This document shows, piece after piece, positions 1,256 to 17,076 of a stretch of DNA of 17,604 bases; positions within the stretch are counted from its first letter, which is position 1, and every line of letters starts with the position of its first letter. The notes below the pieces were generated by a model. That model worked only from the letters and a program-made list of their open reading frames with translations. It had not been told where the DNA came from and made no database searches. Location of the stretch: positions 121,970 through 139,573 of the IMG/VR virus record IMGVR_UViG_3300021400_000219; one strand, given 5' to 3'. A program made the position numbers and the translations under genes. The DNA is from a virus.

Positions 1256-1292
1256 TAAAAATTAAACCCCCAGGGGTTTGGACCCCCTGGGG
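1256..1292 (-). terminator. intrinsic terminator
   Basis: Minus strand CCCCAGGGG-N7-CCCCTGGGG (1268-1292) followed by GTTTAATTTTT; ends the mini-ORF transcript. Confidence 0.7.
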
Positions 1293-1337
1293 TAGGACCA
1301 TTTTTTGGCAGGTTGGTGTCCCTTCCACCTACGCTTG

Positions 1338-1361
1338 TTAAATAAATCCAGTAGGATACAT
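1338..1361 (-). CDS. 7-codon mini-ORF MYPTGFI (candidate micro-peptide or leader peptide)
   Basis: ATGTATCCTACTGGATTTATTTAA preceded by GGAGGTGATACC; tandem paralog of 1423..1446. Confidence 0.3.
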   Translation of the reverse strand: MYPTGFI

Positions 1362-1422
1362 GGTATCACCTCCATAGTATTTGAAACCACTCTTTGGCGG
1401 GCTGGCTTCTACTCCCATTCTA

Positions 1423-1446
1423 TTACGTAAATCCAGAGTAATACAT
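1423..1446 (-). CDS. 7-codon mini-ORF MYYSGFT (candidate micro-peptide or leader peptide)
   Basis: ATGTATTACTCTGGATTTACGTAA preceded by GAGGTGATTTAGAA. Confidence 0.3.
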   Translation of the reverse strand: MYYSGFT

Positions 1447-1592
1447 TTCTAAATCACCTCAACAATAATTTTTAATTCTTTAGTGTTTCGCTAGACGAAA
1501 CCTGTGGGGAACCTACGCATGGCCCTCTCTCCCTTCCTAGTCTATTCCGCAGGGGAGGTTTGGCGCCTTGCCCTCTCCCTTGGAACAATTAT

Positions 1593-1621
1593 AGTATAAC
1601 AGATAGGGCCGTATTTGTCAA
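1593..1621 (-). promoter_or_regulatory. sigma-A/70-type promoter, class A upstream module
   Basis: Minus TTGACA-N17-TATACT (TGT-extended); drives the ~300-nt transcript carrying the two mini-ORFs. Confidence 0.7.
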
Positions 1622-2232: not shown

Positions 2233-2261
2233 AGTATAGCAGAAGGGGGGCCAAAAGTCAA
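2233..2261 (-). promoter_or_regulatory. sigma-A/70-type promoter, class B (GGTTACA repeats upstream)
   Basis: Minus TTGACT-N17-TATACT (TGC-extended); GGTTACAATTTGGTTACA at 2282-2299; distal partner of 2133-2161. Confidence 0.65.
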
Positions 2262-2321
2262 TTACAAAGTAGAAACAAAATGGTTACAATTTGGTTACAG
2301 GCGCCCGGGCGGAAAACTGCA

Positions 2322-2628: not shown

Positions 2629-2657
2629 AATATACCACAGTATTCGCTAATAGTCAA
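2629..2657 (-). promoter_or_regulatory. sigma-A/70-type promoter, class B
   Basis: Minus TTGACT-N17-TATATT (TGG-extended); GTTACATTTTGGTTACA at 2658-2674. Confidence 0.65.
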
Positions 2658-2698
2658 GTTACATTTTGGTTACAGAAATGCCCGGGCGCTTCACTGCG

Positions 2699-2843: not shown

Positions 2844-3536
2844 TTATTCCCCCTTTAGAGCCTTTCTATAAACCTGAACTTTACGCCAGCAATTATAAGA
2901 AATAGAATCATCAAAATCAAGGCCAGATTTAATAATTTTCATGTAAATCTGTCTTTCAATGTCCACATCTTCAAGCCCTGTATGTTCTTCAATAAAATCA
3001 GTATTATTAGTGATAAATCTATACGCAATTTCTGCGCTAGTTTGTACGTTGCCACAATCAGAAATAAATCCGTTGCGTTCTGCATAGTTAATAAAAGCGG
3101 GGGTTTTCAAAATAGAACTGCAAGCCATGTTCCAGATGCAAAAATATTCAGTATTATAAGGGAAAAACCAGCGGATAAAAGAACAAGTGATAAAACGTGC
3201 ATCATTATTTGTGGCCCGCTTGTCAAAGCCCATATTATACGCCCCTACTTTATAGGCGTTATACTCTCTCATGTCCGCCCACAAAATACGCCGAATATTT
3301 AACAGCTTTTTCAGGGTTCTTTTACCCTCTTTAATCTGCTCCCAATACTGCGGAATCTTTTCCGCAAAATAAGCGTTCTGCATCATTTCCTTATCAAGGA
3401 AAATTTCAGCCACAACGAAAGAACGCTCGACCAAAATCTCACCAGTGGTATTATCCACAATCTGGTAGCCCACATCATAGGGCAAAGGCTGTTCCACACA
3501 GTTGGCAGTCTCAGTATCAATAATCAGAATATTCAT
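2844..3536 (-). CDS. DEDDh-type 3'-5' exonuclease (DnaQ-like fold)
   Basis: True start is MNILIIDTET at 3536; the upstream part of the 295-aa track ORF reads through the promoter. Motifs: IIDTET (ExoI), YNMGFD (ExoII), HTGLEDVD (ExoIII with His). Confidence 0.85.
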   Translation of the reverse strand: MNILIIDTETANCVEQPLPYDVGYQIVDNTTGEILVERSFVVAEIFLDKEMMQNAYFAEKIPQYWEQIKEGKRTLKKLLNIRRILWADMREYNAYKVGAYNMGFDKRATNNDARFITCSFIRWFFPYNTEYFCIWNMACSSILKTPAFINYAERNGFISDCGNVQTSAEIAYRFITNNTDFIEEHTGLEDVDIERQIYMKIIKSGLDFDDSISYNCWRKVQVYRKALKGE

Positions 3537-3591: not shown

Positions 3592-3619
3592 ATTATAGCA
3601 GGTTTTTTGAAAATTGCAA
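3592..3619 (-). promoter_or_regulatory. sigma-A/70-type promoter, class C (TTGCACAA operator upstream)
   Basis: Minus TTGCAA-N16-TATAAT (TGC-extended); inverted repeat TTGCACAAAA (3629-3638) / TTTTGTGCAA (3651-3660). Confidence 0.6.
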
Positions 3620-3699
3620 GATGGTAAATTGCACAAAATGCGCAGGTAGTTTTTGTGCAAAATGCCGGGGCGCCCGGGCGGGAGTTAGCCGCAGCTAAC

Positions 3700-3878: not shown

Positions 3879-4229
3879 CTACTTTCTTTTTTGCGTCAAT
3901 GTCAACTCAAACTTCTTTCCGTCAACCTCAAAAGCAATAACTCTTTCCTTGTTAGTGATTTCAAGGTTATCAACGGAGTTAGTCAGAAAGTTAGCAATTT
4001 CCGCAATCAAATGGCCTTTGGTTTCGTTGGGTTTTCTTTCCCTTTTGGTGAATTTGTAAGCCGTAGGCTTTCTGTCTGCCTGCCTTGCTTTCTTTTCCAC
4101 CTTTTTCTGTTCAGCCGTCAAGGGGAACGGGTCTGCGCCCTTGTCGATTTCTTTATCAGTGGCAATGATTTCCATCGCTTCCTGTTCAGAAATATCAAGG
4201 ACTTTCATCAGTCTTTCCTTTTGGTTCAT
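3879..4229 (-). CDS. hypothetical basic protein, paralog family 2
   Basis: True start MNQKERL at 4229 (AGGAAGGGG SD). 116 aa, paralogous to 9262..9615 over its full length (shared ...QADRK..AYKF.K.ERK.N..K...). Confidence 0.85.
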   Translation of the reverse strand: MNQKERLMKVLDISEQEAMEIIATDKEIDKGADPFPLTAEQKKVEKKARQADRKPTAYKFTKRERKPNETKGHLIAEIANFLTNSVDNLEITNKERVIAFEVDGKKFELTLTQKRK

Positions 4230-4253: not shown

Positions 4254-4282
4254 ATTATAAGGGATAGAGGGCCAAAAGTCAA
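4254..4282 (-). promoter_or_regulatory. sigma-A/70-type promoter, class C
   Basis: Minus TTGACT-N17-TATAAT; TCGTCAATTTGCAC motif at 4294-4307. Confidence 0.65.
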
Positions 4283-4361
4283 GATAAATTTGTTCGTCAA
4301 TTTGCACAAAAGTGGTTAGTATAGGCTAACCGCACCCGGGAGAGTTAGTGTGCGCTAACTT

Positions 4362-4398: not shown

Positions 4399-4761
4399 TC
4401 AAATGTCCATGGCCTTGAAGTAGGTGACACGCTTGTCAACATACTTGTCAACCATGCCGTTGAGATACAGGGTGCGGAGCAGACCGCTCACCCGCTGGCT
4501 GGTAGCATCTGCCAGCTCAGGCACCCCAGCGCAAATCTCAGAGATGCGGAAACCCTTGTCCGAATCATCCCGCAGGAAATCCAGAATCTTGGAGCGAATG
4601 GCATCGTTTTCCACCTGCTTGGCGGAAGGCTTGCGCTCAGCCGTGGACTTCTTGGCAAAGCCCTCGGCAATCTTTTCCAGCTTCTCCCGCAGGGCAGTTT
4701 CCTCAGCAGGGACGAAAGTCAGGGCCATCTCAATAGCAGTCTTATTAGTCAGCTTAGTCAT
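4399..4761 (-). CDS. winged-helix-like small DNA-binding protein, paralog family 1 (subtype b)
   Basis: True start MTKLTNK at 4761; the track ORF extends through the promoter. The C-terminus GFRISEICAGVPELADATSQRVSGLLRTLYLNGMVDKYVDKRVTYFKAM is nearly identical to that of 9645..10019. Confidence 0.9.
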   Translation of the reverse strand: MTKLTNKTAIEMALTFVPAEETALREKLEKIAEGFAKKSTAERKPSAKQVENDAIRSKILDFLRDDSDKGFRISEICAGVPELADATSQRVSGLLRTLYLNGMVDKYVDKRVTYFKAMDI

Positions 4762-4960: not shown

Positions 4961-4988
4961 ATTATAGCAGATTTCTCCCAAATTGCAA
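4961..4988 (-). promoter_or_regulatory. sigma-A/70-type promoter, class C (distal tandem)
   Basis: Minus TTGCAA-N16-TATAAT (TGC-extended); homologous to 3592-3619, including the upstream ATTGCAAGATGG..GCACAAA. Confidence 0.6.
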
Positions 4989-5037
4989 GATGGGATTTTG
5001 CACAAATTAGATTAACTTCTTTTGGTTAAAATGTCAA

Positions 5038-5066: not shown

Positions 5067-5072
5067 TAGTGG

Positions 5073-5150
5073 GGGGTCTGCGCGCGGCGGCACCGGCCGT
5101 TATCGGGACGCGCGTGTGTGTGCGTGTGTCGCTTTAAAGAGCTAAAGCGC
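5073..5150 (+). ncRNA. candidate small RNA / GC-rich island, copy C
   Basis: Starts downstream of promoter 5038-5066. Sequence GGGGGTCTGCGCGCGGCGGCACCGGCCGTTATCGGG...GCTTTAAAGAGCTAAAGCG, homologous to 14045-14135 and 16951-17045. Contains a 22-nt alternating purine-pyrimidine run at 5108-5129. The 3' end is unknown. Confidence 0.3.
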
Positions 5151-5170
5151 CCGGGAGAGTTAGCGAGGGC

Positions 5171-6647: not shown

Positions 6648-6827
6648 TTAGTCACCATCCCTTTCTTCAAATTCACATACAGGACAAATAAAATCTCTAA
6701 AGTCTTCCTCTTCCCAATCAGATTCATAGATAGGCTCGCCGCACTCGGGACAATTATAAAATCGTTCATCCCAATTTACGAAACCGCCGAATACATTTTC
6801 AACAATCTTTGCATTCAGTTCCCACAT
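6648..6827 (-). CDS. small acidic zinc-ribbon protein (59 aa)
   Basis: True start MWELNAK at 6827 after AAGGAGG. CPEC...CPVC gives two CxxC pairs. The stop is in the loop of GATGGTGAC/GTCACCATC. Confidence 0.8.
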   Translation of the reverse strand: MWELNAKIVENVFGGFVNWDERFYNCPECGEPIYESDWEEEDFRDFICPVCEFEERDGD

Positions 6828-6840
6828 GGAATTTACCTCC

Positions 6841-6945
6841 TTACCAACCAAAAATCCGAGAGAGTATAACAAGTATTGCATCAAATACAGCTCCAATACC
6901 AATGGCACCCATAATCATCCAAAATAAAACATCCATGTCTTTCAT
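6841..6945 (-). CDS. 34-aa hydrophobic micro-protein (single TM)
   Basis: Below the track cut-off; GAGGGAGG SD. Sequence MKDMDVLFWMIMGAIGIGAVFDAILVILSRIFGW; first gene after promoter 6975-7002. Confidence 0.55.
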   Translation of the reverse strand: MKDMDVLFWMIMGAIGIGAVFDAILVILSRIFGW

Positions 6946-6974: not shown

Positions 6975-7002
6975 AGTATACCACAAATTATCCAAAAGTC
7001 AA
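6975..7002 (-). promoter_or_regulatory. sigma-A/70-type promoter, class B
   Basis: Minus TTGACT-N16-TATACT (TGG-extended); GTTACAATTTGGTTACA at 7003-7019. Confidence 0.65.
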
Positions 7003-7041
7003 GTTACAATTTGGTTACAAACACCCGGGCGCGAAGGTGAC

Positions 7042-7281
7042 TTAGTCACCCTCATTCGTCTTCATTGGAAACAGGTCGTCCAGATTGGTAACACCTGGAA
7101 TAAATTCAGTAATAAAAGAAAAAGGTCTTGCTTCTGCCAATTCTACGTTGTCAATGTCCCACACATCATCAAAGGCTTCTTCGCACGGCGGGCGTAATCC
7201 CTTCCAAAATTTGGTTTCTGCTTCCTCTGCGGTTTCCGCTTCAATCATGCAATAACCAGAAAAATCAATGTACCATTTCAT
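7042..7281 (-). CDS. small strongly acidic protein (79 aa)
   Basis: ORF track; AAAGGAG SD. 19 D/E versus 6 K/R by count. The stop is in the GGTGAC-TTA-GTCACC hairpin. Confidence 0.85.
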   Translation of the reverse strand: MKWYIDFSGYCMIEAETAEEAETKFWKGLRPPCEEAFDDVWDIDNVELAEARPFSFITEFIPGVTNLDDLFPMKTNEGD

Positions 7282-7321
7282 TAGATGATACTCCTTTCAT
7301 TTCTTTTCTTAGGTTGAGTAT

Positions 7322-7350
7322 AGTATAACACTTCACAGGGCATTTGTCAA
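7322..7350 (-). promoter_or_regulatory. sigma-A/70-type promoter, class A
   Basis: Minus TTGACA-N17-TATACT (TGT-extended). Confidence 0.75.
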
Positions 7351-7439
7351 TAGAAAATTGAAAAAAATTTAATGGAATTTATTCCCATTTACCCGGGCGC
7401 GTTAGCTGCTGCTAACTCTGGAAGAAAAAGGAAGGGGGA

Positions 7440-7805
7440 TTACTCCCCCTTCACCTGGAAGCGGCTGACCCGCTTCTCCACAACCTTCTCCACGGTTCCA
7501 GCTTCTACCAGCTGGCGCAGAAGGGCGGAAGCCTGCTGGCTGGAAGAGAGTTCCAGTTCGGCGGCTACTTCCTTCGCCTGCATAGGCTCGTGGTCAGTCA
7601 GCAGTTCAACGATGCGGGCCTTGATACCCTCGTTTTCAATCTGCTTCTTGGTGGGCTTGCGCTCGCCCTTGGACTTGGAAGCGTTCCGCTTCTCATAGCT
7701 GGCCTTGCAAGCAACCAGCTTTTCCATGGCTTCCTCGTTGAAGTCAGCGGGCAGGGAAGCAATAGCCATTTCCAGAGCCTTCACATAAGTCATCTTGTTA
7801 GTCAT
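7440..7805 (-). CDS. winged-helix-like small DNA-binding protein, paralog family 1 (subtype a)
   Basis: True start MTNKMTYVKAL at 7805. Collinear with 1714..2082 (EKLxACKASYxKRN..KGERKP.KKQ.ENEG..., ...ASALLRQ.VEAGTVEKV.EKR). The stop is in the GUAA loop of AAGGGGGA/TCCCCCTT. Confidence 0.9.
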   Translation of the reverse strand: MTNKMTYVKALEMAIASLPADFNEEAMEKLVACKASYEKRNASKSKGERKPTKKQIENEGIKARIVELLTDHEPMQAKEVAAELELSSSQQASALLRQLVEAGTVEKVVEKRVSRFQVKGE

Positions 7806-7879
7806 AGTATGCACTACCTTTCTCTGTTTTAACGAGTTCAGCTCTCAATCTGTTTTGTTCTTTCCCTTACTGTGGCTTT

Positions 7880-7908
7880 ATTATACCACAGGTTCAGGGG
7901 TTTGTCAA
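7880..7908 (-). promoter_or_regulatory. sigma-A/70-type promoter (gene-proximal tandem)
   Basis: Minus TTGACA-N17-TATAAT (TGG-extended). Confidence 0.75.
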
Positions 7909-8018
7909 GAGTTTTTTTGAATTTCTCTTGATTTTTTTGGAGCCATTTTTTAGGTGGGCTACTTCCAACACCCGACTGTTGGCGGTTTTTTAGGTGCGCT
8001 CCCTCACCCGACATCATT

Positions 8019-8047
8019 ATATTACCACAGGTTGCTCCATTTGTCAA
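8019..8047 (-). promoter_or_regulatory. sigma-A/70-type promoter, class A (distal tandem)
   Basis: Minus TTGACA-N17-TAATAT (TGG-extended). Followed by two ~37-nt tandem units GTCGGGTG..CACCTAAAAAA (about 7925-8010). Confidence 0.6.
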
Positions 8048-8117
8048 GGGTTTTTTCAAAAGTTTTTTCTGGAATTTCTACCAAGATTTTCCAGCGACCC
8101 GGGCGAGTTAGCGGGGG

Positions 8118-8495
8118 TTAACCCCGCTTGTACTCTTTAGTGCCCATAGAGTAAGGAATGTTGTACATCTCACAAGCTTCAATGGCGTACCCGATTGCCA
8201 GATTTGCCATTTCCTGGGCTTGCTCATACTTTCTGTTAGGGGTAATCTTGTAAAGAAAATGGTCATTCTGAACCTGTTCAAACAAGTAGGACATTTTCAG
8301 TCGTGCATGAGCTTCGACGGCAAGCCGCTCAGATTTGGTAGCTTTTGGCATTTTAATCCATGCTAAACACTGAAAATGTTCATTCTGTCTGATGCTGGAA
8401 AGACGCTGTGCTGGGGTGTCTTTGCCAGTTTCACCCAGCTTGAAAACACCATTCTTACGGCAGAAATAATTAAAACCAGTATAAAAGCAAGCCAT
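8118..8495 (-). CDS. T5orf172 / GIY-YIG-superfamily-like domain protein (125 aa)
   Basis: ORF track. GVFKLGETGKDTPAQRLSSI plus ERLAVEAHARLK fits the KIG-T...R...L / E..LH pattern of T5orf172 (MUG113) domains as I remember it; not verified by search. Confidence 0.8.
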   Translation of the reverse strand: MACFYTGFNYFCRKNGVFKLGETGKDTPAQRLSSIRQNEHFQCLAWIKMPKATKSERLAVEAHARLKMSYLFEQVQNDHFLYKITPNRKYEQAQEMANLAIGYAIEACEMYNIPYSMGTKEYKRG

Positions 8496-8559
8496 TATTC
8501 ATTCTCCATTCATTTTTTATTGATTGGGGTTTACCTTCGTTCCCCTCAACCTTGATTAT

Positions 8560-8588
8560 AGTATAGCAGATAGGAATGGATTTGTCAA
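8560..8588 (-). promoter_or_regulatory. sigma-A/70-type promoter, class A
   Basis: Minus TTGACA-N17-TATACT (TGC-extended). Confidence 0.75.
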
Positions 8589-8649
8589 TACCTTTTTTCA
8601 AATTTTTTAATGGAATTTTTTTCCAGTTGCCCGGGCGCAGGAGTTAGCA

Positions 8650-8955
8650 TTAGCTAACTCCATTTTCTTCCAGACAAAATTCAAAACTCAAATCTTTTAC
8701 CACTTTTTGGGAAATGTATTCACGCACAAGGAAAAGCTCTAAATCTCTAGCCTGCTCCTCTACATAGCTACGGCGCAAATCGCGCACAGTGGAAAGATTT
8801 ACCATCGGGTATTCCATAGGATAACCACGCGCAACCACAATTACATTGTAAAGATTTTCCACGGGGTTCACCCTCATTCTCTTTTTCTTCTGGAATTTAT
8901 TGGTTTTATTGCGTTCAACTTTCGTTCTAAATTCTTTCATTTTTGCCTTGCTCAT
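8650..8955 (-). CDS. hypothetical protein (101 aa)
   Basis: Start MSKAKMKEF at 8955 overlaps the upstream stop as ATGA. The stop lies in the loop of the GGAGTTAGC-N4-GCTAACTCC hairpin (8640-8661). Confidence 0.8.
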   Translation of the reverse strand: MSKAKMKEFRTKVERNKTNKFQKKKRMRVNPVENLYNVIVVARGYPMEYPMVNLSTVRDLRRSYVEEQARDLELFLVREYISQKVVKDLSFEFCLEENGVS

Positions 8956-9261: not shown

Positions 9262-9615
9262 TCACTTTCTGGGGGCTGATAATACTACTTTGTATTTAGT
9301 ATTTTCAAACGTAAAAATAAACTCTCTTTCTACGTTGGTTATTTCTAACGCTTCCCCGCCATTTTCATTTATTGCGGTTGTGAGAATATCCATTATTGCG
9401 CGTTTTGCGTTGTTTGCTTTACGTTCCTTTTTGGGGAATTTATAAGCGGATACTTTGCGGTCAGCTTGACGCATTTTTTTTGCTACTTTCTGTTGTTCAG
9501 AATTTAACTCAAAAAGTTTTGCCCCGTGGTCTATTGCATCATCATCAGCTAATACTTGTTTAGCTTCTTCCTCTGTCAAATCTAATACCTGCATTAAATG
9601 TTCGATTCTCTCCAT
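9262..9615 (-). CDS. hypothetical basic protein, paralog family 2
   Basis: 117-aa ORF; ATG 9615. No promoter between it and 9645..10019, so it is operonic. Confidence 0.85.
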   Translation of the reverse strand: MERIEHLMQVLDLTEEEAKQVLADDDAIDHGAKLFELNSEQQKVAKKMRQADRKVSAYKFPKKERKANNAKRAIMDILTTAINENGGEALEITNVEREFIFTFENTKYKVVLSAPRK

Positions 9616-9644: not shown

Positions 9645-10019
9645 TTAAACCCCCTCACCCATGGCCTTGAAATAAGTAATGCGCTTATCTACGTACTTAT
9701 CTACCATTCCGTTCAGGTAGAGCGTCCGCAGAAGTCCGCTCACCCTCTGGGAAGTCGCATCGTTCAGAGCGGGAACACCTGCGCAGATTTCAGAGATACG
9801 GAAACCTCTGTCCACATCTTCCCGCAGGAAATCCAGAATTTCCGCACGGACGGCGTCGTTCTCTGCCTGCTTTGCGCTAGGCTTGCGGGGAGCGGTGTTC
9901 TTCTTAATGGCCTGTTCCTTCATCTTCTCCAGCTTTTCCACAACATCCGTCATGTCAGCGGGAACGTAGGACAGAGCAACTTCCAGAGCCTTAACAGTAG
10001 TCATCTTATTGGTAGCCAT
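9645..10019 (-). CDS. winged-helix-like small DNA-binding protein, paralog family 1 (subtype b)
   Basis: True start MATNKMTTVKAL at 10019. The stop is in the palindrome GGGGGTT-T-AACCCCC. Confidence 0.9.
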   Translation of the reverse strand: MATNKMTTVKALEVALSYVPADMTDVVEKLEKMKEQAIKKNTAPRKPSAKQAENDAVRAEILDFLREDVDRGFRISEICAGVPALNDATSQRVSGLLRTLYLNGMVDKYVDKRITYFKAMGEGV

Positions 10020-10224: not shown

Positions 10225-10253
10225 AATATAACACATTGGGGCGCGTTTGTCAA
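10225..10253 (-). promoter_or_regulatory. sigma-A/70-type promoter, class C (distal tandem)
   Basis: Minus TTGACA-N17-TATATT (TGT-extended); TTGCACAA and GTGCATTTTGACGG motifs at 10286-10335. Confidence 0.6.
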
Positions 10254-10414
10254 TACTGATTTGAAAATTTGGGGGCATTCTCTGTTTTGCACAATTTTGA
10301 TGCAAAAATTGCGTCATTTTTGTGCATTTTGACGGCGCGCCCGGGTGAACTACCAATTTCAGGAAAAGCTGGGGTCAAGAGAGAACAAGGAAATTCATTG
10401 AAAAATTTGGTAAC

Positions 10415-10475
10415 GATTTCCAGCGCGCGACACCGGAACCCCTGGGCCGTGTGCGTGTGCGACGGGTGCACGCAG
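10415..10475. other. GC-rich island, copy D (no clear promoter)
   Basis: CAGCGCGCGACACCGG...CCGTGTGCGTGTGCGACGGGTGCACGC; 14-nt alternating purine-pyrimidine run at 10448-10461. Confidence 0.5.
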
Positions 10476-10891: not shown

Positions 10892-11341
10892 TTAAAGACC
10901 TCCCAGAACTTCAAGAATATTATTTACATCATAGGCATTTCCGCCTGCATTATTCCATTCAATTCTATTTCTTTCTTCATCATCAAACAGGATGCCGATT
11001 TCATTTACTACGGTACTTTTGGGGGTGCCATAGGAAACAATTTTCACATCATCAAAATGGACGCTTGCCAGATGTTTTTTTAACCACATCTTTTTTGCTT
11101 CTGTTACAACCTTGTTGTAATCGGGGTTATCTTCCTTAGAGAGCCAAGAGACAACACCAATTTTCCATCCAAGGGCCTGTAACTTGTTCAGCTTGTGGGC
11201 CAGCGCAGAAAGCCGAATCAGGGGTTTTGCGATTTCATAGGGAAGGGGATTTCTCTCAATTAGATAGGAGAGCCAATTTTCCACGCCATACAGATCGGCA
11301 ATAGTCCCATCCATGTCGAAATAAATAGCCTTGTTCATCAT
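10892..11341 (-). CDS. HAD-superfamily hydrolase, 5'(3')-deoxyribonucleotidase (NT5C)-like, paralog 1
   Basis: True start MMNKAIYFDMDGT at 11341 (or 11338). DMDGT is HAD motif I (DxDxT). Roughly 60% identical by eye to 15023..15487. Confidence 0.85.
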   Translation of the reverse strand: MMNKAIYFDMDGTIADLYGVENWLSYLIERNPLPYEIAKPLIRLSALAHKLNKLQALGWKIGVVSWLSKEDNPDYNKVVTEAKKMWLKKHLASVHFDDVKIVSYGTPKSTVVNEIGILFDDEERNRIEWNNAGGNAYDVNNILEVLGGL

Positions 11342-11389: not shown

Positions 11390-11418
11390 ATAATACCAAA
11401 TTTTTTTATAAAAGTCAA
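11390..11418 (-). promoter_or_regulatory. sigma-A/70-type promoter, class C
   Basis: Minus TTGACT-N17-TATTAT (TGG-extended); perfect palindrome TTTGTGCAA-T-TTGCACAAA at 11442-11460. Confidence 0.65.
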
Positions 11419-11441: not shown

Positions 11442-11460
11442 TTTGTGCAATTTGCACAAA
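11442..11460. promoter_or_regulatory. 19-bp perfect palindrome, operator candidate
   Basis: TTTGTGCAATTTGCACAAA, read directly. Confidence 0.6.
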
Positions 11461-12046: not shown

Positions 12047-12490
12047 TTACCCGATATGGGCGGCCAGCCAAGCCAGCATCTTTTTGCTTTCTTTAGCGCA
12101 CCGGATTTTCATCCCGCCGCCGTTCTTCTGGCTTTCCCGCTCGGTCTTGCAGAACTCGGTGCAGAAGGCGGTGAACTCGTCCCGGTTCATCATATAGACC
12201 TGATAATCGGCGGTAACGTAGGCCCAGAGGTTGCTGTGGGTGCGCTCCATATAGAGGGCCCAGATTTCATCATAAGTTTCCCGGCCTTCGCACAGGGTGG
12301 CGCTCATAAGGGTGAAGGCAGAAGCCTTGACGGAGATGAGCATTTCACCAAGCTCGATATCAGAGCCTTTGTCATATGCACCGCTATCATGGGTGGTGCG
12401 GTCGATGCCCATATAGTGGCACAGATCGTGCTCACGGGCAATGCCCTTATTAGTAGCGGGGGAAACGTGGTCAATCTTGAAGGTCTTCAT
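12047..12490 (-). CDS. hypothetical protein (147 aa), noticeably GC-richer than its neighbours
   Basis: True start MKTFKIDHV at 12490 after AAGGAAAGGGAG. GSDIELGEMLISVKAS weakly recalls a PD-(D/E)xK nuclease core; that part is low confidence. Confidence 0.85.
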   Translation of the reverse strand: MKTFKIDHVSPATNKGIAREHDLCHYMGIDRTTHDSGAYDKGSDIELGEMLISVKASAFTLMSATLCEGRETYDEIWALYMERTHSNLWAYVTADYQVYMMNRDEFTAFCTEFCKTERESQKNGGGMKIRCAKESKKMLAWLAAHIG

Positions 12491-12521: not shown

Positions 12522-12550
12522 AGTATAGCACCATTCCCCGGGATAGTCAA
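12522..12550 (-). promoter_or_regulatory. sigma-A/70-type promoter, class C
   Basis: Minus TTGACT-N17-TATACT (TGC-extended); CCCCGGG lies in the spacer. Confidence 0.7.
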
Positions 12551-12614
12551 TACAAAATCGCAAATTTCCCCTTGTGCAAATTATACAAATGTTGGAGCGG
12601 ATTTTTGGGGGCTG

Positions 12615-12631
12615 TTGTGCAAGTTGCACAA
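12615..12631. promoter_or_regulatory. 17-bp perfect palindrome, operator candidate
   Basis: TTGTGCAA-G-TTGCACAA, read directly. Confidence 0.6.
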
Positions 12632-12669
12632 TTAGTGTAACCTGGGTCACATTAAAAGTAACAAAAGAG

Positions 12670-12697
12670 TTACAATCTCTAACAATCAATTACAATC
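12670..12697. repeat. three 10-bp-phased TWACAATC repeats (iteron-like)
   Basis: TTACAATC 12670-12677, TAACAATC 12680-12687, TTACAATC 12690-12697. The core is shared with the class B GGTTACAAT motif. Confidence 0.7.
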
Positions 12698-12727
12698 TTT
12701 TTTTTACTTTCAAAACACTTTTTTTAA

Positions 12728-12910
12728 GTTAGCAGTTAGCAAAGGGTAATGCTAGTTAGCACAAGCTAATTGTTGTTAGTTCGAACTAACTCCGGTTAGC
12801 AGGGACTAACTGGAGTTAGCCTAGGCTAACTTTAGCACACTAAAGCTGTAGCGATTTAGCGAACTAAAGTGCGCCGGACCTGGCAATTTGAACAATTAGC
12901 GGCTGCTAAC
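12728..12910. repeat. tandem array of 8 TTAG(C)-loop-(G)CTAA mini-palindromes
   Basis: Hairpins or palindromes at 12737-12754, 12755-12769, 12775-12790 (GTTAGTTCGAACTAAC), 12795-12810, 12814-12831 (AGTTAGCCTAGGCTAACT), 12830-12845, 12855-12868 and 12896-12909. Confidence 0.85.
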
Positions 12911-12913
12911 TTT

Positions 12914-13167
12914 GTGCATTTTGACGAGGTTTCGGGATTCGTCAAGTTGCACAAAAATGTAACCAAATTGTAACCAAAATTTGTGCAATTTGACGGTGGC
13001 GCGAACTCGGCTGCCAACGACTGCGCTGGGCCACAGTGCACTCGTTGGCGGCCGGTTCGTCATTTTGCACAAATGCGTGCGTGCGAGGGGCCTTAACTTT
13101 ATGCATTATGACGAAAAAAAATTTTTGTGCAAAATGACGAATCAAATCCTGATTCGTCAAAATGCAC
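12914..13167. repeat. array of GTGCA-N3-TGACG motifs in nested inverted pairs
   Basis: Forward copies at 12914-12927, 12983-12996, 13101-13114 and 13127-13140. Reverse copies at 12939-12952, 13057-13070 and 13154-13167. Further copies at 4294-4307 and 10322-10335. Confidence 0.8.
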
Positions 13168-13192
13168 AAAAAAAGAGGCATTGCCCGGCCTC
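13166..13192 (-). terminator. intrinsic terminator
   Basis: Minus GAGGC-CGGGCAAT-GCCTC followed by TTTTTTT. Confidence 0.6.
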
Positions 13193-13463
13193 ATCGGGGG
13201 GAAGCTTGACGCCCTTCCCTGGCGGTGGTGTCCACTTTCGGGGACACGCCCGGCTCCGTTTGCTAGCCGCAGGAGCGTCGCGGCGCTGGGGTCGTTCCCT
13301 TGCCCCTTGGGGAACTTGATGGCCTCCATTTCTATCCCGCGGCCTTGGGGGCGGCCTAGCTACTTTGTGGGGAGTATCGCCCACGTTTCGCCGACGCGGC
13401 TGGGATTTTGGTGTCATCGCGCATCCCGTGCGCTCAAGAGGGACAAGTCAACCTCTTTTCTAT
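13166..13463 (-). ncRNA. candidate ~300-nt GC-rich structured non-coding RNA
   Basis: Runs from promoter 13470-13498 to the intrinsic terminator GAGGC-N8-GCCTC plus T7 (13168-13192). No SD-preceded ORF. Many local hairpins, e.g. GUGUCC-CCGAAAGU-GGACAC and GGGAAG..CUUCCC. Confidence 0.4.
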
Positions 13464-13469
13464 GGTCTT

Positions 13470-13498
13470 ATTATAGCACCCGCAAGGGGTTTTGTCAA
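13470..13498 (-). promoter_or_regulatory. sigma-A/70-type promoter driving the non-coding transcript
   Basis: Minus TTGACA-N17-TATAAT (TGC-extended); an A13-containing UP-like tract upstream (plus-strand T run 13509-13521). Confidence 0.7.
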
Positions 13499-13699: not shown

Positions 13700-13729
13700 G
13701 GAAGTGACCTCCTTTGTTTTACTGTAATC

Positions 13730-13758
13730 ATTATAGCAGACCCGCCCGGGTTTGTCAA
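13730..13758 (-). promoter_or_regulatory. sigma-A/70-type promoter (gene-proximal tandem)
   Basis: Minus TTGACA-N17-TATAAT (TGC-extended); CCCGGG lies within the spacer. Confidence 0.7.
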
Positions 13759-13924
13759 CCCTTTTTTTCATTTTTTTTATTTTTTTTTGGTTCCCCATAC
13801 CCCTCCGGGGAACCACTGGCCGGCTATTTTTTACCTCCCGCCCTAGGGGGTGGCCCTTGGTACTTTGTGGGGTATCTTGCCCACGTTTCCCAGAGGGAGG
13901 GCCCGGAGGGTTTCCCCTCCTGAC
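13759..13924 (-). ncRNA. candidate short GC-rich RNA between tandem promoters
   Basis: Starts after promoter 13931-13959. Contains GGAGGG-GAAA-CCCTCC and GGTTCCCC..GGGGAACC hairpins and a ~50-nt block homologous to 13341-13392. Confidence 0.3.
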
Positions 13925-13930
13925 ATGATT

Positions 13931-13959
13931 ATAATACCACAGGCCCGGCTAAAAGTCTA
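13931..13959 (-). promoter_or_regulatory. sigma-A/70-type promoter (distal tandem; back-to-back with a plus-sense TTGACA box)
   Basis: Minus TAGACT-N17-TATTAT (TGG-extended). Its -35 overlaps a plus-sense TTGACA in GTCTATTGACA (13955-13965). Confidence 0.55.
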
Positions 13960-14007
13960 TTGACAAATCTCACAAATCGGGATGTTCTATTTTGTGCATT
14001 TTTACTC

Positions 14008-14037
14008 TTGACAGCCGAGCCTATTTTGTGGTATAAT
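14008..14037 (+). promoter_or_regulatory. plus-strand promoter facing a GC-rich island
   Basis: TTGACA-N18-TATAAT (TGG-extended); the upstream CATTTTTACTCTTGACA is conserved with 16916-16944. Confidence 0.6.
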
Positions 14038-14044
14038 ATTTCTG

Positions 14045-14171
14045 TACTGCCTGCGCGCGCGGTCGCCGGCCGTTAGCGGGGGCTAACTGTGCCTGGGTGT
14101 GCGCCTTTATTGCAATAAAGCACTAAAGTGCACAAGGGCAAAAAACTACGAGGATTTTTTAATCCTCGTAG
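14045..14171 (+). ncRNA. candidate small RNA / GC-rich island, copy A
   Basis: CTGCGCGCGCGGTCGCCGGCCGTTAGCGGGGGCTAAC...GTGTGCGCCTTTATTGCAATAAAG... running into hairpin 14146-14171, which is shared with the convergent minus-strand gene. Confidence 0.3.
14139..14171 (-). terminator. intrinsic terminator containing the stop codon
   Basis: Minus CTACGAGGATT-AAAA-AATCCTCGTAG followed by TTTTTTG; the stop of 14159..14290 lies in the loop. Confidence 0.75.
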
Positions 14172-14290
14172 TCAATGGCGATGACCTTCCAGCCCTTGGG
14201 CGGTTCGTAGTTTTCCGGCAGGCCCTTCCAGAGAATCAATTCAGTATCGGCCCACTCTCCATCAATCTTTCTGATTTCAATGCTCCACAT
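14159..14290 (-). CDS. hypothetical micro-protein (43 aa)
   Basis: True start MWSIEIRKIDGEW at 14290 after AGAAAGGA; the conserved 5'UTR is shared with 1714..2082 and 17067..17294. Confidence 0.6.
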   Translation of the reverse strand: MWSIEIRKIDGEWADTELILWKGLPENYEPPKGWKVIAIDYED

Positions 14291-14342
14291 AATCTTTTTT
14301 CCTTTCTGGTTTGTTAGGTTTTCCTTCCCTCTTTCTGATTGT

Positions 14343-14371
14343 ATTATAGCAGACTCAACCGGGTTTGTCAA
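14343..14371 (-). promoter_or_regulatory. sigma-A/70-type promoter
   Basis: Minus TTGACA-N17-TATAAT (TGC-extended). Confidence 0.75.
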
Positions 14372-14385
14372 CCCCTTTTTCAAAT

Positions 14386-14529
14386 TTATTTAATTCTTTT
14401 TACTTTGATAACCTTAGCCCCAGAGTATTCAGCTTTTCCCTCTTTCAGAAATTTGCGGTTAGGATTGACAAGGGTGATGGTAGATTCTTCGCCGCAAAGG
14501 CTGATGGTAATTTCATAAATCTTTTTCAT
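14386..14529 (-). CDS. hypothetical micro-protein (47 aa)
   Basis: Below the track cut-off; AAAGGAAA SD. Sequence MKKIYEITISLCGEESTITLVNPNRKFLKEGKAEYSGAKVIKVKRIK. Confidence 0.6.
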   Translation of the reverse strand: MKKIYEITISLCGEESTITLVNPNRKFLKEGKAEYSGAKVIKVKRIK

Positions 14530-14562
14530 TTTTTTTCATTTCCTTTCCTTTTTTCTGTCTTT

Positions 14563-14591
14563 ATTATAGCATCGGCCGGGCGATTTGTCAA
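14563..14591 (-). promoter_or_regulatory. sigma-A/70-type promoter
   Basis: Minus TTGACA-N17-TATAAT (TGC-extended). Confidence 0.75.
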
Positions 14592-14609
14592 CCCCTTTTT
14601 TGAAATTTT

Positions 14610-14756
14610 TTAGGGAAATTTATCTCTCCCTAAAAAACAATCCCGCATAAATTCCAACTGTTCCAGAGAAAAGCGGGCCGCAAATTGTGCGGGCGTCTCT
14701 TCAAAGAGATGGTATCCGTTGGCAACCATTTCCATTACAACTTCCAGCTTTTTCAT
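14610..14756 (-). CDS. hypothetical micro-protein (48 aa)
   Basis: True start MKKLEVVMEMVANGY at 14756 after AAAGGAGGAAC. Confidence 0.65.
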   Translation of the reverse strand: MKKLEVVMEMVANGYHLFEETPAQFAARFSLEQLEFMRDCFLGRDKFP

Positions 14757-14786
14757 TTTGTGTTCCTCCTTTGTTTTTGTACCTTT

Positions 14787-14814
14787 ATTATACCATACTT
14801 TTGGCAAATGTCAA
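14787..14814 (-). promoter_or_regulatory. sigma-A/70-type promoter (gene-proximal tandem)
   Basis: Minus TTGACA-N16-TATAAT (TGG-extended). Confidence 0.7.
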
Positions 14815-14923
14815 GACCTTTTTTCAATTTTCTTTTGGTCTTTGCGGGTCCGACCCCCGCACCCTCTGAAGGGCTGTTGTCGGCTTGGAGGTCCTTCCTA
14901 CTGGGACCCCGTCCTTGATTATT

Positions 14924-14951
14924 ATTATAGCAGATAATAGCCAAAAGTCAA
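14924..14951 (-). promoter_or_regulatory. sigma-A/70-type promoter, class B (distal tandem)
   Basis: Minus TTGACT-N16-TATAAT (TGC-extended); ATTACA 14951-14956 and GGTTACAAT at 14961-14969 and 14983-14991. Confidence 0.6.
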
Positions 14952-15022
14952 TTACAAAATGGTTACAATTTTATTTCAGAATGGTTACAATTTGCGCCCG
15001 GGCAAATGGGAAAAAGAGGGAA

Positions 15023-15487
15023 TTACTTCCCTCTCGCCCATGTCAGAACGTCCATAATCATTTCAGGATTGAAGGCCCAACCTTCCATTTCTTCCCACTC
15101 AATCACATTGTTTTCTTCATCGTCAAACAGAATCCCATTTTTCACGGTGGGCACTGTGCTTTTGGGCGTCCCATAGGGAACAATGTTGATTTCATCAAAG
15201 TGAACGCTTGCAAGGTGTTTCTTGAGCCAATTCTTTTTGGCTTCAATAACCTTTTCGTCAAATTCCTTGTTGCTATTCTTAGCTAACCAACTAACTACCC
15301 CGATTGTCCATCCCTTTTTCTGAAGGTTATTCAACCGACGGGCAAGGGCGTTCATGTTTACCAGAGGCTTAGCAACTTCATAGGGGAAGGGATTGTTTTC
15401 CAGTAGATAACCCAGCCAGTTTTCTACGCCGTAGAAGTTGGCGATTGTTCCATCCATGTCAAAGTAGATTGCCCGATTGATTTTCAT
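15023..15487 (-). CDS. HAD-superfamily hydrolase, 5'(3')-deoxyribonucleotidase (NT5C)-like, paralog 2
   Basis: 154-aa ORF; AAAGGAG SD; contains YFDMDGTIA. The stop is in the GUAA loop of AGAGGGAA/TTCCCTCT (15015-15034). Confidence 0.9.
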   Translation of the reverse strand: MKINRAIYFDMDGTIANFYGVENWLGYLLENNPFPYEVAKPLVNMNALARRLNNLQKKGWTIGVVSWLAKNSNKEFDEKVIEAKKNWLKKHLASVHFDEINIVPYGTPKSTVPTVKNGILFDDEENNVIEWEEMEGWAFNPEMIMDVLTWARGK

Positions 15488-15590: not shown

Positions 15591-15619
15591 TTGACAAATT
15601 GAAAAAACTGTGATACAAT
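15591..15619 (+). promoter_or_regulatory. plus-strand promoter followed by a T19 tract
   Basis: TTGACA-N17-TACAAT (TGA-extended), then AAAGGGGGAATTA and T19. Confidence 0.6.
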
Positions 15620-15632
15620 AAAGGGGGAATTA

Positions 15633-15651
15633 TTTTTTTTTTTTTTTTTTT
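15633..15651. repeat. homopolymer T19 (A19 on the gene strand)
   Basis: Counted directly from the sequence. Confidence 0.95.
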
Positions 15652-15652
15652 G

Positions 15653-15688
15653 GTTAGCTTAGGCTAACTTAGGTTAGTATGTGCTAAC
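15653..15688. repeat. two TTAGC-type mini-palindromes
   Basis: GTTAGC-TTAG-GCTAAC (15653-15668) and GTTAG-TATGTG-CTAAC (15673-15688), followed by CCCGGGCG at 15691. Confidence 0.8.
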
Positions 15689-15705
15689 TACCCGGGCGCA
15701 AGAAA

Positions 15706-16557: not shown

Positions 16558-16591
16558 GGAAAATCTTTTGAGAGGGTTTCCCCTCTCAAAA
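16558..16591 (-). terminator. stop-codon-containing hairpin / probable terminator
   Basis: Minus TTTTGAGAGGG-GAAA-CCCTCTCAAAA followed by GATTTTCC; 11-bp stem with a GNRA loop. Confidence 0.6.
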
Positions 16592-16807
16592 AATGTTTAC
16601 CATTTCAGGCTTTACCATCTCAACAGGAAGGAAACAACCGCTTTTGCAGTAAACTTCTTGTTTCACGTTTCCATCTTTGATAACCAGACGATACACGCCG
16701 CAGGTTCTTCCAGCCGCTTCCATTTTTGCTTGTTTCCAAGCTTTTCCAAAAGCTGCAGTATCCTCAAACTCAAACCCCGCAACCTGATAAACAAACTTCT
16801 TAGCCAT
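16586..16807 (-). CDS. hypothetical protein (73 aa)
   Basis: ORF track; AAGGAAAGGGG SD. Confidence 0.85.
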   Translation of the reverse strand: MAKKFVYQVAGFEFEDTAAFGKAWKQAKMEAAGRTCGVYRLVIKDGNVKQEVYCKSGCFLPVEMVKPEMVNIF

Positions 16808-16839: not shown

Positions 16840-16868
16840 ATTATAGCATCCTGTAAGCTATTTGTCTA
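16840..16868 (-). promoter_or_regulatory. sigma-A/70-type promoter, class C (divergent)
   Basis: Minus TAGACA-N17-TATAAT (TGC-extended); TTGCACAAAAA at 16877-16887. Confidence 0.6.
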
Positions 16869-16915
16869 TTGGTAAATTGCACAAAAAAGTTTTTGATTTT
16901 TGGGCATTTTTACTC

Positions 16916-16944: not shown

Positions 16945-16950
16945 AAAATG

Positions 16951-17076
16951 GGGAGCTGTTGTTCGCGCGCGCCGAAGGCCGTTAGCGGCCGCTAACCGGG
17001 TGTGCGTGTGCGCACCTTTATAGCTTTAATGGGTTAAAGTAACCGGGTAAAAAAGAGAAGGACTTTTCAGTCCTTC
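16951..17076 (+). ncRNA. candidate small RNA / GC-rich island, copy B
   Basis: GGGGAGCTGTTGTTCGCGCGCGCCGAAGGCCGTTAGCGGCCGCTAACCGGGTGTGCGTGTGCGCACCTTTATAGC... Includes the 16-bp palindrome GTTAGCGGCCGCTAAC (16981-16996) and a 16-nt alternating purine-pyrimidine run (17000-17015). Confidence 0.3.
17046..17076 (-). terminator. intrinsic terminator containing the stop codon
   Basis: Minus GAAGGACT-GAAA-AGTCCTTC followed by TCTTTTTTACC; the stop codon (17067-17069) spans the loop and the first base of the 3' arm. Confidence 0.75.

Follow-up and report, generated by a model that had tools for sequence, protein, structure and literature searches.

Upstream motifs mark putative factor-dependent promoter subclasses in the early region of an uncultivated rumen phage

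Do the different repeats that lie upstream of the early promoters of an uncultivated rumen phage subject its gene cassettes to different regulation? The question is raised by a 17,604-nucleotide stretch of IMG/VR virus record IMGVR_UViG_3300021400_000219 (positions 121,970 to 139,573), referred to here in its full length (17.6 kb) as the window. An earlier note on this DNA distinguished, beside a first set of promoters (class A), a class B marked by GGTTACA direct repeats and a class C marked by half-sites or palindromes and a TGACG extension. Our analysis suggests that the class B and class C motifs are putative binding sites for sequence-specific regulators and that they mark factor-dependent promoter subclasses, with a PucR-type protein as the best lead for class C. 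We give this reading a probability of roughly 0.6.

Promoter subclasses and their upstream motifs

The window (42% G+C; 44% non-coding) is the cassette-like early region of an uncultivated phage of about 174 kb. It matches part of a 174-kb sheep-rumen contig (ENA ERZ28612966 scaffold_111) at 100% identity, and other assemblies contain near-identical and mosaic variants of it. The phage DNA covered by our analysis amounts to about 35 of the 174 kb, namely the window with a 7-kb and a 10-kb flank. The minus strand of the window carries approximately 33 near-consensus sigma-70-type promoters (TTGACA-N16-18-TGnTATAAT), each followed by one or two small open reading frames (ORFs) with strong ribosome-binding sites. 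Along the direction of transcription, a cassette is composed of a variable hairpin, a palindromic CGCCCGGGCG box, a class-specific upstream segment, the -35 and -10 boxes, and the gene or genes.

The motifs were present where the earlier note had placed them, well above chance and exclusively in non-coding DNA. Compared with 200 dinucleotide-preserving shuffles of the window, from which the expected counts were taken, GGTTACA occurred in 9 copies (1.74 expected), TTGCACAA in 15 (1.26 expected) and GTGCA-N3-TGACG, with up to one mismatch, in 11 (0.5 expected), and none of the 200 shuffles reached any of these counts. The CCCGGGCG box, also with up to one mismatch, was counted 46 times vs 7 expected. 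All 9 GGTTACA copies (P = 6e-4), all 15 TTGCACAA copies (P = 5e-6) and all 22 CCCGGG sites (P = 1e-8) were located in non-coding DNA, and most class B and class C motifs lay between a CCCGGGCG box and the -35 of a minus-strand sigma-70-type promoter. No class B or class C motif and no CCCGGG was found in the 7-kb flank on one side or in the first 7 kb of the 10-kb flank on the other; outside the window there was one TTGTGCAA/TTGCACAA pair, in the adjoining 1.9-kb non-coding leader. The motif system is local to the early region.

The class B and class C promoters also differed from the others in their core. All 11 class B/C motif groups were positioned 0–33 bp upstream of a -35, with a 16–18-bp spacer and a TATAAT-like -10. 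The consensus -35 (TTGACA) was found in 1 of these 11 promoters vs 21 of the 22 class A and unboxed promoters (Fisher P = 1.3e-6), and a non-consensus -35 (TTGACT, TTGCAA or TAGACA) in 10 of the 11 vs 1 of the 22. Likewise, an UP-like A-tract (tttGAAAAAA) just upstream of the -35 was present at 19 of the 22 other promoters vs none of the 11 (P = 1.9e-6), and the class B or class C motif occupies the place of that tract. These differences overturn the premise of the earlier note that the core promoters are equally strong on paper. Because class B and class C promoters also differ in the -35 and the A-tract, the classes are set apart by more than their upstream motifs. The proposal of distinct promoter subclasses with different upstream motifs was itself borne out, as the motifs are over-represented, strictly intergenic, in register with the -35 and recurrent in related phages; the earlier interpretation is right in outline, as regards distinct regulatory promoter classes, and wrong in the one premise of equal core promoters.

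A weaker -35, the lack of an UP-like tract and a site abutting the -35 are the usual appearance of factor-dependent promoters. Since the motif replaces the A-tract and the -35 is weakened, class B and class C promoters are most likely factor-dependent, that is, activated or tuned. We infer from the sequence that the sites are bound; predictions of the same kind are the sign of the regulation, the protein that binds and a possible influence on timing.

Sites, hub and cassette boundaries

The class C motif is a dyad of 17 bp, TTGTGCAA-N-TTGCACAA. This dyad, the half-sites 8–9 bp upstream of a -35 and the forms with a degenerate second half are all predicted to be regulator sites. Full copies occur at 11443–11459 (palindrome TTGTGCAATTTGCACAA), upstream of promoter 11390–11418 of a 5'-nucleotidase-like gene (10892–11338), and at 12615–12631, where the palindrome lies together with a half-site (12572–12579) upstream of promoter 12522–12550 (gene 12047–12490). 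The other copies are half-sites and composites whose second half reads TGACGA. Among the minus-strand sites, the one at 3629–3660 consists of a proximal half-site (3629–3636), 9 bp upstream of the -35 TTGCAA of promoter 3592–3619, which drives the exonuclease-like gene 2844–3536, and an inverted distal half-site (3653–3660). Promoter 4961–4988 (-35 TTGCAA), the distal promoter before the winged-helix gene 4399–4761, has a half-site 9 bp upstream of its -35, at 4998–5005, and promoter 16840–16868 (-35 TAGACA; gene 16586–16807) has one 8 bp upstream of its -35, at 16877–16884. The composite TTGTGCAAATTGACGA (4294–4309, minus strand) is placed 19 bp upstream of the -35 of promoter 4254–4282 (gene 3879–4229). 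A cluster of TTGCACAA, ATGCA..TGCGTCA and GTGCATTTTGACGG (10287–10335, minus strand) occupies the interval between the CCCGGG box and promoter 10225–10253, the distal promoter before the winged-helix gene 9645–10019. Class C contexts in the window are heterogeneous. The class C positions in the earlier note were correct to within a few bases (the half-site at 4998–5005, for example, had been placed at 4995–5003). The densest cluster, the non-coding hub at 12560–13170, was missing from its list.

The TGACG extension does recur with GTGCA, but it occupies the position of the second half-site of the dyad, so this description needs revision. The extension is probably a degenerate second half of the 17-bp dyad. 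At three minus-strand promoters and one plus-strand promoter, a half-site and a degenerate second half together span 17 bp beside the -35. In the close variant L012, TGCTG or TGCACA stands in place of TGACG at three hub sites, and TGACGAA is also found alone, as an inverted pair.

Class B sites consist of TGTAACC-type units in 11-bp phase that run up to the -35, and they are likewise predicted to be regulator sites. The plus-strand copies of GGTTACA (2282–2288, 2293–2299, 2668–2674, 7013–7019, 14961–14967 and 14983–14989) had been listed by the earlier note, which missed three copies on the opposite strand (12636, 12958 and 12969). Because the degenerate units AGTTACA, AATTACA and AGAAACA stay in 11-bp phase with GGTTACA, class B is an 11-bp-phased direct repeat extending to the -35. 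The first site (2260–2299, minus strand) has four such units, read on the plus strand as AATTACA at 2260, AGAAACA at 2271 and GGTTACA at 2282 and 2293; the units are TGTAACC-type on the transcribed minus strand and lie between a CCCGGGCG box (2304–2311) and the -35. The corresponding promoter (2233–2261, minus strand), TTGACT-N17-TATACT with an extended -10, is the distal one of a tandem pair before the winged-helix gene 1714–2082. At the second site (2657–2674, minus strand; AGTTACA, GGTTACA), the proximal unit touches the -35 of promoter 2629–2657 of a 91-aa gene (2322–2597), and the third (7002–7019, minus strand), AGTTACAATTTGGTTACA, touches the -35 of promoter 6975–7002 (genes 6841–6945 and 6648–6827). 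The fourth (14950–14989, minus strand) has AATTACA, GGTTACA, a degenerate unit and GGTTACA in 11-bp phase upstream of promoter 14924–14951. The -35 form TTGACTTTTGG, proposed as a mark of class B, is found in three of the four class B promoters but also in one class C promoter (4282). Class B promoters resemble each other over the whole module, the 5' untranslated region included, while the spacers between -35 and -10 have diverged and the repeats were kept.

Both motif classes are contained in the 600-bp non-coding hub at 12560–13170. Its core (12905–13170) has eight composite sites, TTGTGCA-WWW-TGACGA, arranged as inverted pairs, and a reversed class B pair (12958–12975) bracketed by TTGCACAA and TTGTGCAA; the hub also has one palindrome. 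It would constitute a high-density binding region for the same factors as the class B and class C promoters. Arrays of five to eight successive short hairpins with (G)TTAGC/GCTAA(C) or TTTAGC/CTAAA stems, of the same type as those preceding each CCCGGGCG box, are found at 12720–12900 and at 7000–8900 of the related locus L255. A 1.9-kb non-coding stretch just past the right end of the window, where the early region starts, is full of such hairpins.

The motifs recur in related phage loci, which were taken from IMG/VR by a protein search and a DNA pattern search; protein identity to the phages in which they recur is as low as 35–60%. The recognizable proteins of the window are a DnaQ-like exonuclease (phrog_20187, E = 2e-47), two 5'-nucleotidase-like HAD paralogs and four winged-helix paralogs of about 120 aa; the related loci (28–42% G+C) share exonuclease, nucleotidase and winged-helix proteins at 30–63% identity. 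In many of these loci, at 28–42% G+C, TTGTGCAA was 14–38 times above expectation. Its 128 copies in 13 loci included 60 with promoter-like -35 and -10 boxes inside 30 nt, and in 35 of these 60 the gap to the -35 was 8 or 9 bp, vs about 4 expected under uniform placement. The exact 17-bp palindrome was also present in L012, L138, L200, L230 and L243, and a TTGTGCAA-type promoter was found at the 5'-nucleotidase ortholog in about 6 of 15 lineages. As for class B, TGTAAC-N5-TGTAAC occurs at about four promoter regions of the distant relative L200, one of which has three phased units at the expected -35 position, upstream of an extended -10. A viral scan with the class A pattern (CCCGGG..GGAAAA..TTCC) returned just single chance matches.

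The closest isolates are phAss-1 and Enterococcus phages of about 140 kb (the EF1 group, 41% identity). In 40 kb of Enterococcus phage EF1, the nearest isolate checked, neither TTGTGCAA nor CCCGGG occurred. A megablast search of the window against phage and plasmid collections gave 0 matches, and a literature search on the motif strings matched only primer sequences in unrelated papers. Two contigs that resemble related phage contigs, L298 and L333, were binned in Eubacteriales and Agathobacter metagenome-assembled genomes (MAGs); TTGTGCAA occurs 14 times in L298, which also encodes a nucleotidase homolog (43% identity), and 10 times in L333, which has hairpins like those of the window. This binning with Clostridia genomes is a weak hint at the host. 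Right outside position 1 of the window, L010 has an AT-rich island (13700–15350, about 25% G+C) that encodes a 204-aa helix-turn-helix (HTH) gene with faint Crp/MarR matches, apparent in-frame TAG codons and GTCTAAAATTTTAACA repeats on both flanks. The EF1/phAss-1 group has been put in a proposed family, some members of which have TAG recoded (PMC10607447), and the in-frame TAG codons are consistent with the recoding reported for this group.

Comparison of close variants points to cassette exchange at the CGCCCGGGCG box. The box at 2304–2311, a cassette boundary, is one of the 22 CCCGGG sites. Close variants (L009, L012, L013) differ at the CCCGGG box by insertion, deletion or replacement, with the box as the exact junction, and across CCCGGG the window and these three loci have the same class B promoter module on one side and four different upstream hairpins and genes on the other. 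In one variant, two class B/CCCGGG modules have recombined and cassette 2322–2597 has been lost. Hairpin stems are variable and are followed by CGCCCGGG, not by a U-tract. The CCCGGG box is lineage-specific and absent from distant relatives.

Candidate regulators and rival explanations

The lead to a PucR-type regulator came from bacterial genomes. A scan for the exact dyad, with one genome per species, returned at least 120 loci, mostly in Clostridia. In 5 of these at least 120 loci, the palindrome lay 10–29 nt upstream of the start codon of a gene for a GGDEF_2 + HTH_30 regulator, between the -10 box and the ribosome-binding site, and among the matches listed it lay 20–30 nt past the 3' end of an HTH_30 gene in 5–6 more, several of them in Streptococcus. 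The exact dyad is thus within 30 nt of an HTH_30 gene at about 10 of the at least 120 loci listed; the chance expectation, a rough estimate made without a matched control, is well below one locus. PucR-type regulators are mostly activators that bind 17–24-bp inverted repeats (17 bp for PutR, 24 bp for AdeR and 21 bp for GabR), and the GabR site is immediately upstream of the -35 (PMC7652997). The length of TTGTGCAA-N-TTGCACAA, 17 bp, falls in the range of about 17–24 bp of PucR sites. Because the palindrome adjoins HTH_30 genes and the family binds inverted repeats of this length, a PucR-type protein is the best lead for class C.

Two Christensenellaceae MAGs (L299 and L301) have a conserved unit in which a PucR-type regulator gene is followed by a gene for an S41 peptidase, and TTGTGCAA-N-TTGCACAA lies between the -10 and the ribosome-binding site. 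This placement suggests an operator through which an unstudied subfamily of regulators controls its own synthesis.

Several observations weigh against this reading. The extended -10 (TGn) is kept in nearly all class B and class C promoters, and in relatives the -35 and -10 boxes of many TTGTGCAA promoters are perfect. The promoters thus need not depend on an activator and could equally well be repressed. The full palindromes of the window lie 24–70 bp upstream of a -35 and not beside it. The bacterial matches listed are rich in long hairpin-type palindromes, which are possibly terminators. Footprinting with the close variant L012 had no power, since motif positions were 95.6% identical vs 94.9% elsewhere. 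A search for HTH_30 in the phage ORFs of the window, the 17 kb of flanks and the related loci gave nothing below E = 0.06, and in IMG/VR PucR-type genes were found on one, unrelated contig only. The binder would accordingly be a host protein, or a phage protein from the remaining approximately 140 kb, as no HTH_30 was found in the window, flanks or related loci. A host gene probably encodes it, since the identical palindrome adjoins PucR genes of Firmicutes and no such gene was found in the phage DNA examined. A local host regulator of low abundance would then need to serve more than 20 phage sites.

The other possible binders are less probable. The phage itself encodes four winged-helix paralogs, all on the minus strand: 1a (1714–2082), a candidate regulator gene whose distal tandem promoter is class B; 1b (7440–7805), with a class A distal promoter; 2a (4399–4761), with a class C distal tandem promoter; and 2b (9645–10019), with a class C distal promoter and a recognition helix identical to that of 2a. 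The AF2 model of 1b (pLDDT, predicted local distance difference test score, 87.6) has a C-terminal domain like ArsR/MarR winged helices. In autoregulated early circuits, subfamily 2 might read class C and subfamily 1 class B and/or class A. These proteins are the sole recognizable DNA-binding proteins in the window, with homologs that have HTH_20 or MarR_2 Pfam matches; every paralog gene has tandem promoters, the distal one bearing a class motif; a subfamily-2-like gene is paired with an upstream TTGTGCAA in L012, L165 and L200 as well; and the family is among the few proteins common to the window and the motif-rich L200. However, L001 has three paralogs and no TTGTGCAA, recognition-helix sequences are unrelated to motif presence across relatives, fold comparison matched a generic winged helix, and with weak scores (best E = 4e-3), and the same 17-bp palindrome beside bacterial PucR-type genes is left unexplained. 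We consider this assignment possible but doubtful. A PDB sequence search with these paralogs returned only low-complexity matches to designed repeat proteins. A 117-aa paralog family (9262–9615 and 3879–4229) was also considered as a binder and rejected; its AF2 model is confident, with no fold match (best E = 0.96), and its putative HTH is acidic. Host global regulators are highly improbable binders. The consensus of the Spo0A 0A box is TGNCGAA, and Rex and CRP half-sites resemble TTGTG..CACAA. TGACGAA fits the former and TTGTG..CACAA is like the latter half-sites, as it would be for sites of Spo0A, Rex or a CRP/FNR-type protein (TGTG..CACA). Yet TGNCGAA is not enriched (9 vs 8.5 expected), only its N = A form recurs, fixed 3 nt from GTGCA, and TGACG is replaced at the three L012 hub sites; furthermore, TTGTG and CACAA are separated in the dyad by 7 bases, one short of the Rex/CRP spacing.

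Two further explanations would make the promoter motifs secondary or functionless, and we regard both as unlikely. The hub might have the primary function, as a replication origin or a partition-type site with iteron-like repeats, and the promoter-proximal copies might then serve, for example, autoregulation or transcription-replication coupling. Such a site would be in keeping with the eight composite sites, which are arranged as inverted pairs over 270 bp of non-coding DNA and are separated by A/T runs and a GC-rich hairpin; comparable dense clusters exist in L007, L200 and L230, and many replication initiators are winged-helix proteins. Against this, most copies across the clade keep a fixed distance to a -35, no gene for an initiator, a helicase or a primase adjoins the hub, and in L012 the hub is much reduced while the promoter copies persist. 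Alternatively, the motifs could be a by-product of descent, carried along without a regulatory role as promoter modules were copied from a few ancestral cassettes by recombination at CCCGGG. The likeness of class B promoters across the whole module with its 5' untranslated region, the breaks between close variants at the CCCGGG box with different hairpins on the same promoter module, and the precedent of promoter-early stem-loops (PeSLs; PMC2839356) all speak for such copying. The junctions at CCCGGG imply that class B promoters owe part of their similarity to shared ancestry of the modules. Such ancestry does not account for the persistence of the short motifs in distant phages with unrelated flanks and with varying number, orientation and spacing. 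The heterogeneous contexts of class C within the window and the diverged -35/-10 spacers of class B beside retained repeats also argue against descent alone, which leaves the hub and the bacterial palindromes unexplained.

Wider context and comparison with known systems

The window has further non-coding elements, some of which are linked to class C. A plus-strand promoter (13992–14037; TTGACA-N18-TATAAT at 14008–14037) has TTGTGCAT at a distance of 8 bp upstream of its -35, and the element that it drives is GC-rich and non-coding. Such elements, opposite to the gene strand, lie on the plus strand at 5067–5165, 14038–14140 and 16945–17050, with similar sequence at 930–1200 and 10420–10475. Each follows a plus-strand promoter, and at two of these promoters a degenerate TTGTGCAA precedes the -35 by 8 bp. 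In the fold that the elements share, a GCGCGCG/GTGTGCG stem encloses a GTTAGC..GCTAAC hairpin, and a TTTA..TAAA hairpin comes next; in relatives, short GC-rich hairpin RNAs of a similar kind are often driven by TTGTGCAA promoters. On the minus strand, a non-coding transcript unit of about 300 nt and about 65% G+C (13165–13498) runs from a perfect promoter (13470–13498) to a terminator near 13165–13190; a shorter paralog lies upstream of it (13800–13950, minus strand), with the common core 'aaacgtgggc...ccccacaaagta', and neither matches Rfam. Rfam and tRNA scans of the whole window gave no significant match. The class A promoter 1593–1621 drives a leader of about 350 nt without a long ORF (1260–1621, minus strand), which has two tiny ORFs with good ribosome-binding sites (MYYSGFT* near 1424–1447 and MYPTGFI* near 1339–1362) and terminates in a GC-rich hairpin at about 1262–1300. 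Two plus-strand consensus promoters (15591–15698 and 17433–17500) are directly followed by 'aaGGGGGa' and a run of 20–26 T; the element at 15591–15698 runs on into TTAGC hairpins and a CCCGGGCG box, and the same arrangement is found in L012 and L255. Between the first gene and the GC-rich repeat region at 930–1200, the DNA at 370–900 is non-coding and about 80% A+T.

New in this study are the refined motif definitions, the hub, the conservation across an uncultivated phage clade and the link between the class C dyad and PucR-type regulators. Tentatively, a clade of large uncultivated phages of rumen and gut Clostridia may use TTGTGCAA-N-TTGCACAA to place a subset of early cassettes, together with small GC-rich RNA genes, under a host activator of the PucR family. 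If so, the expression of nucleotide-metabolism and regulator genes would depend on the physiological state of the host, with the hub as a sink or sensor for the host factor, possibly a case of a lytic phage that senses host state via a host activator. On the main reading, the early genes would be split into at least three wiring classes in a recombining cassette array and would not be served by uniform maximal host promoters, and one class would bear the putative recognition sequence that lies beside genes of PucR-type regulators, a family poorly studied in gut and rumen Firmicutes. Known binding sites of PucR-type proteins are few, and the motifs provide candidate DNA targets for them. The TTGTGCAA-N8/9-TTGACA signature can retrieve related uncultivated phages and their early regions from metagenomes, as it did here.

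Several known systems share features with the window. Stoperators of cluster A mycobacteriophages are distributed genome-wide within transcribed regions, block elongation and are read by one phage regulator. They have in common with the window a short asymmetric motif repeated many times; in contrast, the window motifs lie upstream of promoters and in the early region only. In phi29, a lytic Firmicutes phage, Spo0A 0A boxes at early promoters and at the genome ends couple development to host state. Host-regulator sites at early promoters are also what we propose for the window, although here the 0A box is not enriched and the dyad is a different one.

Direct repeats are also the form of Pho-box sites of OmpR/PhoB-type regulators and of lambda CII-type activator sites. 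The geometry of class B, 7-bp direct repeats with an 11-bp period, close to the helical turn, that overlap, abut or replace the -35, is that of Pho-box-type sites. The Pho-box consensus is CTGTCAT, or TT[ATC]ACA in Bacillus. The class B sequence, GGTTACA/TGTAACC, does not match it, having an invariant G where Bacillus PhoP sites have T, and no response-regulator-type protein was seen in the phage DNA examined. Class C compares with PucR-family operators in being a 17-bp inverted repeat, and the identical palindrome is found at Firmicutes PucR-family genes. The copies just upstream of a non-consensus -35 are half-sites with a degenerate second half, the full palindromes lying further upstream, and no HTH_30 gene was found in the phage DNA examined. 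The known regulators of this family are local, with 1–2 sites per genome, whereas the window has more than 20 sites in 17 kb, many of them half-sites.

Among large Firmicutes myoviruses, Kayvirus vB_SauM-515A1 has one reported early-promoter consensus (TTGACW, a 17-bp spacer and the extended -10 TRTGN-TATANT) and no upstream operator classes (PMC7698491). The window likewise has dozens of strong host-type promoters before small early genes, but its promoters carry upstream operator-like classes. The PeSLs of T4-type phages are composites of a strong sigma-70-like promoter and a stem-loop that flank small genes (PMC2839356, PMC4122927). The elements of the window are also promoter and stem-loop composites flanking small, mostly unknown genes, and differences between close relatives are located at the element. 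They belong to an unrelated phage group that infects Firmicutes and is nearest to EF1/phAss-1, not T4-type; their hairpins have no U-tract, and an additional palindromic CCCGGGCG box serves as the junction. Furthermore, the promoters of the window fall into subclasses with upstream motifs of their own, which have not been described for PeSLs.

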